DNA of 64,000 nucleotides, taken from assembly GCA_903893545.1 (NCBI GenBank), contig CAITMJ010000009.1:299045-363044 (forward strand), in the 5' to 3' direction. The notes under the pieces are model-generated. The model was not told the origin of the DNA, did no database searches, and worked only from the letters and a program-made list of their open reading frames with translations. Positions 31,677 to 35,700 of this stretch are shown here, one piece after another. How positions within the stretch are numbered: position 1 is the first letter of the stretch; each line of letters opens with the position of its first letter. Origin of the DNA: an uncultured Chlamydiae bacterium (lineage in GTDB: Bacteria; Chlamydiota; Chlamydiia; Chlamydiales; SM23-39). Both the position numbers and the translations under genes were made by a program.

Positions 31677-31757
31677 TATTGAAGAACTCCTTCTTGTTTG
31701 TTGTCTAAACAGCTGTTGCTACCCCTAAATAAAGGCCTCCGTACACGAAAAAATCAA

Positions 31758-32049
31758 CGATAACGGCTTGGCACGGCCAAGCCTAAGGATGACGGCTCGC
31801 AAGCGAGCCTATATGATACGCTCTCTCCGGGAGCTGACAGGATAAAAAAAGAACGCTTCGCGGCAGCGCAAGAGGCCACCGGGCCCGACTGAAAGTCGGT
31901 GCTGCGCTATTTGCGCAGCAGTAGGCTTCGCCTACGCCCGGTGGCCTCTCTTCTCCTCTTATCATGCCAGTCCGCCATTACAGGCGGACGTATCCTATAG
32001 GCTCGCGAGGCGAGCCGTCATCCTTAGGCTTGCGAGCAAGCCGTTATCG
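31758..32049. other. GC-rich nested-palindrome element: ~62-nt imperfect terminal inverted repeats around a 168-nt core with a perfect four-way junction; unclassified (structured ncRNA or non-autonomous mobile element)
   Basis: The left arm (31758-31820) matches the reverse complement of the right arm (31989-32049): CGATAACGGCTTG..CAAGCCTAAGGATGACGGCTCGC..GCGAGCCTATA.GATACG. Each arm carries two local hairpins. The core contains a 14-bp stem (31871-31884 with 31936-31949) enclosing three abutting hairpins. Confidence 0.55.
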
Positions 32050-32088
32050 TGTGAATTTCTTAATAACAAGCTAGAAGCGGCAACTTGT

Positions 32089-32664
32089 ATGATTGGCGCT
32101 TATGCCCCAGTGTTGGAAATTCTCAATGATTTAGAAATAAAATATTTCGGTGTAAGATTACCATATTGTCCTGAGAAAATGCACGCCTTCCGTGAAGAAA
32201 AACAAAAAGTAAAGTTTCCACCAGAGCCGATGCCGGAATACTTTTTCGCTCTAAGTCAAAGATGTGGAATTGGAGCTTTTTACATCAACATAGAAGGGAA
32301 ATATATTGAATTATCATCAACTAATTATATGTCCTTTTATGGACCATCAGTATTCAGTCATACAAGCAACAAACATTCGAACCTTCTATACACAAAATGT
32401 TCCCAACTTTATGAAGCTGCTATGCAAGAATCTGATCCAGAACTTCTTCTACAGAAATTAGGAATATTCTTTTGGGTAAATTGCCAAGCCAAATTGTGGA
32501 GCAAAGGAGAGCCTGCTATCGGTGAGATGATCATTCGAGCCGTTCTAGCGAGCAAGGGATTAAAATTTTCCGGGTGGAAACTAGGAATCATTCCTTGGGT
32601 AGAAGTATTCAAATACATCGATGGAAATGAATTTGGGAAGAATTTCAAGAATCTTCTCCAATAG
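32089..32664 (+). CDS. Hypothetical protein (orphan)
   Basis: This 191-aa AT-rich ORF is followed by a strong bidirectional terminator. No family was recognised. Confidence 0.45.
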   Translation: MIGAYAPVLEILNDLEIKYFGVRLPYCPEKMHAFREEKQKVKFPPEPMPEYFFALSQRCGIGAFYINIEGKYIELSSTNYMSFYGPSVFSHTSNKHSNLLYTKCSQLYEAAMQESDPELLLQKLGIFFWVNCQAKLWSKGEPAIGEMIIRAVLASKGLKFSGWKLGIIPWVEVFKYIDGNEFGKNFKNLLQ

Positions 32665-32719
32665 TTATACTACCGCAGCCAGCTATTTGTCTTATTTTTG
32701 GGTAGAGAGTGAATAGAAA

Positions 32720-32752
32720 AGGCCCAGGAGAAATCCTGGGCCTTTGTTGTTT
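32720..32752. terminator. Bidirectional rho-independent terminator between the orphan ORF and rpoC
   Basis: A 9-bp GC-rich stem, AGGCCCAGG (32720-28) with CCTGGGCCT (32735-43), has the loop AGAAAT. It is followed by TTGTTGTTT on the + strand and by TTTCTATTC on the - strand. Confidence 0.75.
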
Positions 32753-35700
32753 AAACAGCTGCTGTTTCTGAAATGAAGTCGATGTCGAGTTCTTCAGCGC
32801 TTTGGGCGTCGATGAACTTATTGACCTTCTTGTGATATTCAAAACCAGTACCGCCAGGAATCATGTGGCCCATAATGAGGTTGGCCTTGATGTCGAGGAG
32901 GTAGTCGGTCTTGCTCTCGCAAGCCGCTTCGGTAAGGACGCGAGTCGTCTCTTGGAAGGACGCTGCCGAAACAAACGATTCTGTTCCAAGGGAAGCGCGA
33001 GTGATTCCAAGGAGGATCGGAGCTGCTTGTGCAGGCTTGCCCCCCTCTTCGATCGTCTTGCGGTTCTGTTCATGGAACGCTTTCTTGTCGATGTCTTCGC
33101 CATGTAGGAAGGTCGTATCGCCTGGATCGGTGATGCGCACTTTCTGGAGCATTTGACGAGCGATGATCTCGATGTGCTTGTCGTTGATGTCCACACCCTG
33201 TAGGCGATAGACTTCTTGCACCTGGTTGACCAAGTATTTTTGGAGTTCGCGAACGCCGCAAATATCGAGGATCTCCTGGAGAACGACGAGTCCTTCAGTC
33301 ATCTGCTGCCCCTTAATCACGTTATCGCCTTTCTGGACGATCAAGTGCTTATTGAGCGGGATGAGATGCTCTTCTTCCATGCCTGTGACATCGTCTCGAA
33401 CGACGACAATCCGCTTGTTCTTCTGAACGCCGCGGAAATCGACGATACCGTCAATTTTTGCGATTTCAGCAGAATCTTTTGGACGGCGAGCTTCGAAGAG
33501 TTCAGCCACGCGCGGGAGGCCGCCAGTGATGTCCTTCGTTTTGATCGCGCCACGAGGCAGTTTTGCGAGGATCATACCCGCTGCGACAAACTGTCCTTCG
33601 CGAGAGGTGATCACAGCGCTAGACGGAATCGCATAGGTACCGATGAGTTCGTTGCACTCTTTGTCTGTAAAGATCGAGATTTGCGGGTGAAGCTCTCCAC
33701 GGTGCTGCTTGACGATCAGCTCGACCTGGCCTGTCTGTTTGTTGACTTCGCGCTGGGTAGAAATCCCTTCGACGAGGTCTTCGTATTTGACATATCCTGG
33801 GCGTTCGCAAATGATCGGGCTGCTGTGTTGCTCCCACTGACCGACTTTGGTCTTTTTCTTGACTTTTGTGCCGTCAGCAAAAAGAACTTTCGTTCCGAGT
33901 TCAATCGTAAAGGATTGGAGAGGCTCGATCGATTTATTTTTCAGAAGTTTTTTGTAGTCTTCCATCGATCTTCCCTCGTCTTTGACGATCTGGAGAGAGC
34001 CGTTTTTGTTCAACGCAAGCCAATGTCCTTCTTCGTTCTGTACGACGCGAAGGTCCATATAGACGAGAATGCCATCATGCTCAGAGATGAGCTCTGGGCT
34101 AAGGCCCGCAGATGCGATACCGCCCAAGTGGAACGTTCTCATCGTAAGCTGCGTTCCCGGTTCACCGATAGACTGGGCAGCGATGATGCCGATTGCCTCG
34201 CCGAGGCCGACAAGACTGCCAGACGCAAGGTTAAGGCCATAGCACTTGGCGCAAATGCCGCGTCTGCTCTCGCAAGTAAGAGCGGAACGGATGCGGACGT
34301 TTTCAATCCCCGCGTCATCGATCGCTTCTGCTTGCAGTGCGGTAATCACATCGCCTGAACGAGCAAGAACTTTCTTGCTGTTGCCCGGCTGGTAGATGTC
34401 ATCGAGAACGGTTCGGCCGAAAATTCGGTCTTTGAGCGAAAAGAGCTCTTCCGTTCCTTGCTTGATCGGAGTGATTTCGATACCGTTGAGGGTACCGCAA
34501 TCGACACGAGTGACAATAACGTCTTGTGCAACGTCGACTAAGCGACGAGTCAAGTATCCAGAGTCAGCCGTTTTCAAGGCGGTATCTGAAAGACCTTTAC
34601 GCGCTCCGTGCGTCGAAATAAAGAATTCCATCACAGTCAACCCCTCGCGGAAGTTGGCCGTAATTGGAGATTCGATGATCTCGCCAGACGGTTTAGCCAT
34701 CAGTCCTCGAAGTGCTCCGAGCTGCTTGACCTGAGATTTGTTACCGCGAGCTCCAGAGTCTACCATGAGATAGAGAGGATTGAGATCGCCGGAGGTCGAT
34801 TCAAAGATGAGCTTAAAAAGTTCCTCAGAAAGTCTGTCAGATACTTCTGTCCAGATGCTGATGATCTTCGAGTGGCGCTCCCCTTCGGTGATGATTCCGT
34901 CTTCGTATTGTTTTTTGACAACCGCAACGCGTTTGTACGCATCTTCTAAGACCTGCTTCTTATGAGGAGGAACTTTGATGTCGCACATACCCATCGAAAT
35001 CGCCGCTTTGGTCGCTTCGGCAAAGCCCAAATTCTTCATGTTATCGAGGAACTGAACAGCCGACTCAAGACCTAGCTTTTTATAGCACTCAAGCACCAGT
35101 TCAGAGAGTCTCTTCTTGCGAAGGACGTAGTTCTGGAAGCCAAGGCCTTTTGGAACGATCGTATTGAAGATGACTCGCCCTGGAGTCGTTTCAATGATGC
35201 CCCCTTCGATGAGAACTTTGATCTTCTCATGGACGTGGATGCCGCGAGTTAAGAGTTCGCGAGGACCAGTCTTCTCTTTCCCGTGCTGATCGAACCAGCT
35301 AAAGCTGCCGCTCGAATAGACAGCCATCAAGACTTCTTCTGGACTTGCAAAAATTTTGATTTTACGTCCGAGTTTTTCCGGATGGATAACTGGGTCGTGC
35401 ATCAAGTAATAAAGACCGAGGATCATATCTTGCGCAGGAATCGCAACGGGTTTACCCGAGGAAGGCAAGAAGATGTTGTCTGGCGCCATCATCAAAAGCT
35501 TCGCTTCGAGCTGTGCTTCGATGGAAAGCGGGATGTGAACCGCCATCTGGTCCCCGTCGAAGTCGGCGTTGAATGCCGGAGTGACAAGGGGGTGAATGCG
35601 GATCGCTTTCCCTTCGATCAATACGGGCTCAAATGCCTGAATGCCGAGGCGGTGAAGCGTAGGAGCTCGGTTTAAGAGAACCGGGTGCCCTTTGATGATC

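Follow-up and report, generated by a model that had tools for sequence, protein, structure and literature searches.

In REP and REPIN repeats and their RAYT genes (REPtrons), GC hairpins that carry a short tag are arranged in inverted, fold-back groups; one small enzyme gene lies between inverted repeats, and gene-less doublets are scattered through intergenic regions. Miniature elements derived from insertion sequences (IS-derived MITEs) are likewise small, non-coding, multi-copy and palindromic. Tn5 and Tn10 are members of the IS4 family, whose transposases typically leave a 9-bp target duplication. The inverted terminal repeats (ITRs) of AAV and other parvoviruses place short palindromes in a long stem around a multi-way junction, the inner part of which occurs in two orientations. 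For chloroplast non-coding DNA, recurrent hairpin-associated small inversions are described, in which short spacers bounded by perfect short inverted repeats have changed orientation recurrently and homoplasiously (for example, PMC12928735 and PMC6342102).

Here, we analysed a window, by which we mean the whole 64,000-nt stretch of DNA from an uncultured member of the Chlamydiae, in which an earlier note, made from the sequence alone, had drawn attention to a cloverleaf-shaped junction of perfectly paired helices. The element around this junction is similar to each of the systems above and differs from each in definable ways. Its hairpin tags are CAGGAT, AAGGATGA or ACGATAA, and not the GTAG or CGTC of REP and REPIN sequences (a GTAG start of the third junction hairpin is found only in the copies of the host genome, G000, and is not conserved). 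Unlike in REPINs, each arm has three to four units, the centre is a three-hairpin junction, and the gene between homologous arms encodes a GxxExxY protein of the PD-(D/E)XK type, whereas RAYTs are Y1 HUH transposases. With IS-derived MITEs it shares, in the genome G324, termini identical to those of an autonomous IS and a 9-bp duplication; however, IS termini are missing from most copies, the interior is a conserved nested palindrome and not random filler, and the motif arrays and the four-way junction are common to another kind of cassette. In contrast to AAV ITRs, which have two inner hairpins and a three-way junction, the element has three inner hairpins in a four-way junction, is chromosomal and internal, is not accompanied by a Rep gene, and has young copies of uniform orientation. 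Finally, the spacer that flips comprises three hairpins and lies inside a mobile bacterial repeat, unlike that of the chloroplast inversions. We consider it probable that the junction lies at the centre of a non-autonomous mobile palindrome of environmental chlamydiae, worn, gene-less and related to GxxExxY cassettes, and that it is not an RNA gene or a tRNA mimic. A conspicuous structure that looks designed would then be explained as selfish DNA and not as a new RNA gene.

A four-way junction at the apex of a nested palindrome

The host genome (1.63 Mb in 35 contigs) carries the element in the neighbourhood of a V-type ATPase operon with DUF2764, a transaldolase gene and rpoC/rpoB. The element is flanked by two ORFs on the same strand, one of 245 aa (no Pfam match) and one of 191 aa (partial AvrB_AvrC match). 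The latter (32089–32664, +) lies directly downstream and belongs, as does the element itself, to a lineage-specific stretch between tal and rpoC; its match to the avirulence-protein family AvrB_AvrC (E 6e-8) is confined to the C-terminal third of that family.

Read directly from the sequence, the junction at 31871–31949 is gap-free, with 0 mismatches and 0 unpaired junction bases, and its outer stem comprises 14 bp (AGAGGCCACCGGGC/GCCCGGTGGCCTCT, 31871–84/31936–49). RNAfold returned the structure that the earlier note had drawn, a 14-bp stem enclosing three abutting hairpins within 79 nt. All drawn helices were predicted, except that hairpin 1, drawn with 5 bp and a 5-nt loop, came out with 6 bp and a 3-nt loop. 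Both strands were folded against shuffled controls, as had been suggested: as RNA, the + strand reaches −62.9 kcal/mol (z −10.6; 0 of 200 shuffles as good) and the − strand −63.3 kcal/mol (z −10.1; no shuffle as good), and with DNA parameters the segment reaches −40.1 kcal/mol (z −11.5; again no shuffle as good). With z of about −10 to −11.5, and with the junction strongly maintained in homologous copies, the judgement that such a structure is unlikely to arise by chance was well founded; the junction is far beyond chance.

A tRNA cloverleaf has a 7-bp acceptor stem, D, anticodon and T arms, and conserved T-loop and D-loop bases. ARAGORN found no tRNA or tmRNA between 31500 and 32300, the outer stem has 14 bp, and junction bases are absent, which agrees with the earlier assertion that the structure is not a tRNA. 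Likewise, no Rfam family matched at E ≤ 1 anywhere overlapping 31737–32070 (cmscan, permissive filters). On these ARAGORN and cmscan results, identity with a tRNA, a tmRNA or an Rfam family was rejected.

The supposition that the junction forms the core of a larger element also proved right. It is the apex of a nested palindrome of ~330 nt (31737–32070), which folds at −196.5 kcal/mol (z −16) and in which the inverted repeats 31757–31820 and 31989–32050 pair with each other. The parts of the element are as follows.

31737–31754, +: relic of an IS4-family terminus, CTCCGTACACGAAAAAAT, with one substitution and one deleted base relative to the consensus CTCTGTACACGACAAAAAAT
31755–31870, +: left arm, four motif units of the type (C/A)(A/G)GAT(A/G)A with a GC hairpin after each (sequence, local folds of all copies, homologous arms and termini at GxxExxY genes)
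31765–31783, 31794–31809, 31820–31834 and 31854–31868: left-arm hairpins
31871–31949, no strand: four-way junction (K), stem 31871–84/31936–49 (folds, covariation, covariance-model matches in relatives, conservation)
31885–99, 31900–20 and 31921–35: junction hairpins 1, 2 and 3
31885–31935, no strand: three-hairpin cassette of 51 nt, in other copies present as its reverse complement with respect to the asymmetric flanks (flip/flop)
31950–32051, +: right arm (inverted repeats I1, I3 and I6; whole-element fold)
32052–32070, +: right terminal extension TGAATTTCTTAATAACAAG, truncated (copy–flank comparison; common to the 'T' segments of the C8, C10 and C19 arrays)

The terminus relic directly abuts the first arm motif of the palindromic module, an arrangement that recurs in the copies on contigs C30 and C19; no right IS terminus matching 31737–31754 was found in the window copy. 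The consensus CTCTGTACACGACAAAAAAT bounds the complete G324 copies and about 30 IS copies with 9-bp duplications. The left-arm motifs (CAACGATAAC, TAAGGATGAC, TATATGATAC and GACAGGATAA) have mirror images in the right arm, and the final one, GACAGGATAAAAAAAGAA, is followed by an A-rich spacer that leads to the junction. On the other side, a CT-rich spacer ends in the mirrored motif TTATCATG, and the right-arm hairpins (31970–31989, 32000–32016 and 32027–32042) are separated and ended by three more mirrored motifs (TATCCTA, CATCCTTA and GTTATCGTG). Because one spacer is A-rich and the other CT-rich, and because each half has different hairpins, the flanks are asymmetric and provide a reference orientation for the junction. 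Considering its single recognisable IS terminus and its location in the lineage-specific tal–rpoC stretch, we regard the window copy as an old relic that is probably immobile.

Copies in related genomes and compensatory change

Besides the window copy, G000 has full copies at C30:11–309, C10:5896–6191 and C8:11–316 and half copies at the ends of C19, C8 and C10, so that several copies lie at contig ends. A search of relatives for the same junction topology, another suggestion of the earlier note, recovered 15 or more copies in six genomes and one metagenome contig; the element is thus present in at least five genomes besides G000, plus that contig. Relatives with the same architecture are G006 (five junctions), G324 (at least four; MGLY01, 'Chlamydiae bacterium RIFCSPHIGHO2_12_FULL_49_9'), G338 (three) and the metagenome contig Ga0207043_1013. 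In G152, which belongs to another family of the same order, a stand-alone junction of the same topology (G152:C3:151961–152039, L220) sits in an AT-rich spacer 3′ of enolase; its outer stem is GCCGCATC, its hairpins are TGACT/AGTCA, AGCGCT and GCAAAC/GTTTGC, and recognisable arms are absent. The same-genus genomes G001–G005 have no copy of the element. The junction pattern had 0 matches in a collection of viral contigs, and a phage or viral origin was rejected on this result.

Covariation was assessed in 12 copies, each oriented from hairpin 1 to hairpin 3. Standard pairs account for 94.5% of the cells, and both sides have changed in 14 of the 32 pairs. These values were reached in 0 of 500 shuffles, pairing fell to 29–41% when the partners were slid by 1–3 columns, and an alignment of eight copies gave the same picture. 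The earlier note had named helices broken by non-compensatory substitutions as the outcome that would speak against it; instead, the alignments indicate that all four helices have been kept by compensatory change. Hairpin 3 is the most variable (GTAGGC, GCAGGC, GCAAGC and GCAAAAAC), G338 has another hairpin, of 9 bp, in place of hairpin 1, and CCACC/GGTGG in the outer stem has become GCGCC/GGCGC in G324. Identity in the junction exceeds that in the flanking 125 nt within G000 (91% versus 83%), within G006 (79% versus 64%) and between genomes (78% versus 60%). By this measure the junction is the best-conserved interior segment, and its higher conservation could reflect some further function.

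A small hairpin insert, CCCCACCCC..(A/T-rich hairpin)..GGGG(A/C)CCCCGG, recurs at G006:C76 (L244), where it interrupts junction hairpin 1, at G338:C10 (L254) and at G338:C44 (L398), within the arms of a GxxExxY cassette; possibly, it represents an even smaller mobile hairpin.

A scan of the genome collection with GGCCACCGGGCNCGAC was unspecific and gave only GC-rich chance matches, and a paired-stem scan recovered mostly GC-rich palindromes without relation to the element, along with another REP-like repeat from Chthoniobacterales. The latter is a different, multi-copy nested palindrome of ~150 nt (GTAGCACAGGCATCTTGCCTGTGGGGCCACCGGGCGTCTCGCCCGGTG...loop...mirror) in Chthoniobacterales and Verrucomicrobiae MAGs (L161, L163, L169, L171, L175, L176, L180, L181, L185, L195, L201, L203 and L207), with a GTAG start as in REP elements and with arms that are themselves built of small hairpins. 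The 11-mer GGCCACCGGGC is common to this palindrome and the chlamydial junction stem, possibly by chance.

Homologous arms around GxxExxY genes

When the G006:C5 locus was used as a BLAST query, multiple 58-nt segments of about 90% identity were found in G215. At G215:C5, two inverted arms enclose a stretch of about 600 nt with the coding sequence of a PDDEXK_3 protein, which is split here by a small insertion. There are five PDDEXK_3 genes in G000, two in G006, eight in G215 and five in G338, several of them on tiny contigs, and all 10 of the full-length genes examined are bracketed by inverted repeats of tandem short motifs. In these cassettes, the left arm holds the start codon and the ribosome-binding site, and the right arm encodes the last residues. 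The type of arm motif tracks the protein subtype: CAGGAT, ACGATAA or ATGATAT arms accompany ...LEYRRVHHPA...PVPF proteins, and CCACAGAG arms accompany those ending in ...GIRRxR. At their outer ends, CAGGAT-type cassettes (AAGG(G/A)ACAGGAT...) match the modules (AAGGAACA(T/G)GATAACGG...), and the arm of the G215 cassette is identical to that of the G006:C5 module at 47 of 52 positions. Judged from these alignments, arms and termini are common to modules and GxxExxY cassettes.

In G000, intact GxxExxY genes lie on contigs C2 (111586–112044), C25 and C13. The C2 protein matches TIGR04256 'GxxExxY protein' at 128 bits (cut-off 35) and retains an intact PD...ExK together with the GxxExxY glutamate, residues that do not vary between two paralogues. 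In the window element, the junction occupies the position of the gene, and there is no GxxExxY gene between the arms. None was detected in the 79%-complete assembly of G324 either, despite its junction modules. We found no clean empty site for a gene-carrying cassette, the slot being variable in sister species. A 2012 survey of PD-(D/E)XK proteins listed the function of PF13366 as 'Unknown' (PMC3424549). Our full-text literature searches yielded neither a functional study of GxxExxY or PDDEXK_3 nor a paper on GxxExxY cassettes bounded by repeats, and the class as used here is informal. The GxxExxY protein had no significant PDB relative by sequence and no PADLOC match, and an AlphaFold model from two paralogues (mean pLDDT 37) was not used.

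A second element family brackets another GxxExxY subtype. Its copy at G000:C34:51970–52302 has CCACAGAG-repeat arms, a GCGGGG..CCCCGC hairpin and an internal TGA, and the family also occurs at G002:C133 (L239) and G324:C30 (L257, right end). It is represented in sister genomes by gene-less foldback elements, one of which occupies the same intergenic slot as the junction element on G000:C10.

Since its arms and termini are common to GxxExxY cassettes, the junction module is best read as a gene-less derivative of such a cassette, MITE- or REPIN-like, and the cassette as its probable origin. The full-length form would be a ~0.5-kb cassette in which inverted CAGGAT-type arms surround one small GxxExxY (PD-(D/E)XK, PDDEXK_3) nuclease-like gene. 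Where the gene is missing, short spacers and the 79-nt junction would link the arms into a palindrome of ~300 nt, with complementarity kept at the DNA level. In a single-stranded or cruciform state, which may well occur in vivo, each strand would form a long branched hairpin with the three-hairpin cloverleaf at its tip. Spread would depend on enzymes acting in trans, by way of an IS4-family MITE shell in G324; elsewhere, the likely agents are GxxExxY proteins, which would bind to the motif arrays and provide for the mobilisation or maintenance of the two forms. The junction may have been kept for serving this mobilisation or maintenance, beyond the self-correction of a palindrome. The earlier proposals of a recombination or cruciform substrate and of a protein-binding scaffold are compatible with this scheme only if the junction is taken as the centre of a mobile DNA palindrome with iterated-motif arms.

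One could go further and suppose that the junction is a branched-DNA feature for the GxxExxY nuclease itself, a speculative extension that we rate as rather unlikely. A minimal PD-(D/E)XK enzyme would read the CAGGAT iterons on both arms of the folded or cruciform element and then use or cut the branched centre, gene-less copies would stay mobile, or be maintained, by virtue of the compact junction that took the place of the gene, and the flip/flop states would be the in vivo footprint of the hairpin or cruciform state. If true, a 79-nt oligonucleotide and the GxxExxY proteins of this genome would offer a biochemical entry to a very large uncharacterised family, and the elements would represent an apparently undescribed, nuclease-only class of mobile element. 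Independently of this extension, the tie to GxxExxY/PDDEXK_3 gives concrete DNA substrates for probing the function of the protein.

Mobility and an IS4-type shell

At G006:C38, the copy amounts to 403 nt inserted between a pair of genes that share an ATGA overlap in G010 and have 6 nt between them in G007; a target duplication is not visible, and the ends reach past the palindrome. At the G006:C5 locus, the spacer measures 450–610 nt in G006 compared to about 130–160 nt in G338 and G324. By these comparisons, a multi-copy element has been inserted at one of the loci compared, and sister species do not have it. The genes next to the copies encode no transposase, Rep or recombinase, and we rejected them as candidates for the mobilising enzymes.

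In G324, the palindromic module lies within a ~455-nt unit bounded by CTCTGTACACGACAAAAAATGATTT... and its inverse, and 9-bp direct repeats (ATAAAATCG and ACTTACGTC) flank the termini (CTCTGTACACGAC...) of two copies. The same 20-nt terminus bounds a 1222-bp IS in a Methylomarinum genome, whose single 372-aa ORF matches DDE_Tnp_1 and the NCBIfam model 'IS4 family transposase' (NF033591, 246 bits, cut-off 152), and 9-bp duplications are found at about 30 insertions of this IS and also at several short derivatives. At its right end, the G324 unit matches IS ends from contig edges of two Parachlamydiales MAGs over 45 nt without a difference, and its left end resembles the other IS end. As expected of an IS4-derived MITE, both termini of the G324 unit match an autonomous IS, with a target duplication of 9 bp at two copies; in the window copy, only the left terminus does. 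Judging by these ends and flanks, one lineage (G324) moved with IS4-type termini and 9-bp duplications. No cognate IS4 transposase was found in G000, G324, G338, G006, G332 or G152, a weak negative given the incomplete assemblies and the lack of a positive-control genome. Nor was a complete chlamydial parent IS found, only the IS ends at contig edges and a solo end adjoining an IS256 transposase.

These data bear on the main rival to an origin from GxxExxY cassettes, a purely IS4-driven history, in which the module is the passive filler of an IS4-family MITE, a transposase acting on the CTCTGTACACGAC termini did all the spreading, the likeness of the arms to those of GxxExxY genes dates from a single ancestral capture, and the nuclease has no present role. 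Such a history fits the complete termini and 9-bp duplications of G324, where no GxxExxY gene was found, and the existence of other short MITEs from the same IS family; it also fits the one terminus fused to the module on G000 contigs C9, C30 and C19 and the degenerate GACAAAAAT remnants in G006 copies. However, the G000 copies are one-terminus only, yet multi-copy, and no IS terminus occurs within 4 edits in G000:C10, G338 or the metagenome-contig copies. The module termini are, moreover, those of the GxxExxY cassettes, and the IS4 transposase was not found in six module-bearing genomes. We therefore give this history a small share of the probability, larger than that of a functional RNA or of hairpin-primed replication.

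An origin from GxxExxY cassettes would make the element unusual among bacterial miniature elements, in that vehicles of two unrelated kinds (a GxxExxY-type cassette and a MITE shell of the IS4 type) have carried one module. Equally unusual are an interior four-way junction kept by compensatory change across genera and the repeated flipping of the junction cassette.

The 20-nt IS terminus, CTCTGTACA(C/T)GACAAAAAAT, is near letter-for-letter the same across distant phyla, and the sequence just inside it differs (L261–L380, in Methylococcales, Legionellales, Thiotrichales, Coxiellaceae, Chlamydiota and other MAGs). One Methylomarinum chromosome has dozens of copies of the 1222-bp IS. In G000, an element of ~200 nt with IS4-like termini (CTCTGTAGATGGCAAAAAATG ... 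GTCGTGTATGGAG) occurs as two tandem copies (C18:145950–146180) just 3′ of a gene ending ...AVKLAMKKC; its arms carry ACGATAA motifs, and its centre is a simple hairpin. A solo IS terminus lies at C21:240793.

Pairing at the DNA or the RNA level

Wobble pairs are the usual intermediates in RNA helices. The 384 paired cells of the alignment include 360 Watson-Crick, 3 G.T and 10 A.C pairs; the imbalance of 10 to 3 is weak evidence of a strand bias, the copies not being independent and three rows being near-identical. The near absence of wobble pairs, the equal folding of both strands, the presence of copies in any orientation relative to neighbouring genes and the lack of CsrA favour pairing at the DNA level, and selection on the RNA of one strand is the less likely reading.

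A structured non-coding or cis-regulatory RNA (a terminator, stabiliser, insulator or protein sponge) carried by chance on the repeat would agree with the strong covariation and with the conservation of the junction above its flanks, and the position of the window copy between two same-strand ORFs makes co-transcription possible. It would be difficult to reconcile with strands that fold alike, with nearly missing G.U pairs, with a cassette that is inverted relative to its flanks in at least a third of the copies, and with the lack of a fixed orientation towards neighbouring genes; in addition, the element has no Rfam match at E ≤ 1, and there is no U-tract 3′ of the junction. The CAGGAU motifs do look like CsrA sites. 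However, CsrA (PF02599) is absent from G000, while control genomes match, and with it falls the only idea of an RNA that the GGA-containing motifs had prompted; a sponge RNA of the CsrB/RsmZ type was rejected, since the genome does not encode the CsrA/RsmA partner. Altogether, we consider an RNA function very unlikely. The viral tRNA-like structure that the earlier note had also mentioned is not supported, given Watson-Crick pairing on both strands, the flipping cassette, the variable orientation relative to genes and the Rfam result.

A sub-threshold match to the Rfam family CsrC lies at 32564–32760 (+), inside and past the 191-aa ORF (23 bits versus a gathering score of 61, E 3e-4); it is probably due to chance, because the genome has no CsrA.

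Inversion of the junction cassette

In the window copy, hairpin 1 adjoins the A-rich left spacer. In the copies on C30, C10 and C8, by contrast, the 51 nt inside the stem are reverse-complemented and the flanks are unchanged (in BLAST, the core aligns on the minus strand and the flanks on the plus strand); depending on the state, the loop of hairpin 1 reads TGAAA or TTTCA. Both states are found in G006 (C53, C38 and C136 versus C5 and C76), which, together with the G000 copies, indicates that the cassette has been inverted repeatedly. An assembly artefact is unlikely, because reads cover all 79 nt and both states occur in independent assemblies. The four young, near-identical copies of G324 are all in one state, from which it follows that inversion is occasional and not tied to each round of movement. 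Most likely, the 51 nt would invert at the perfect 14-bp inverted repeat that encloses them, through template switching or recombination at the stem, to give the flip and flop forms.

Replication or resolution through hairpin intermediates, with a flip/flop in each round as in parvovirus ITRs or poxvirus telomeres, is hardly credible: small palindromes in a long stem with flip and flop forms are formally AAV ITR-like, but the copies are chromosomal and internal to contigs of 98–364 kb with unrelated neighbour genes, the uniform G324 copies speak for occasional flipping, viral contigs have no matches, and no Rep-type gene adjoins any copy.

Arrays at contig ends

Elements of this kind matter for genome work, as they break assemblies, come to lie between translationally coupled genes and yield spurious ORFs. 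In G000, tandem or nested arrays of half-elements occupy C8:1–560, C10:1–300 and C19:16980–17315, all at contig ends. They mix pieces of the junction element with pieces of the CCACAGAG-type element and are joined through a recurring GCCACC|TCAGAGCGA, which is present both inside the junction stem (GGCCACC|) and in a repeated flank (ATGCCACC|).
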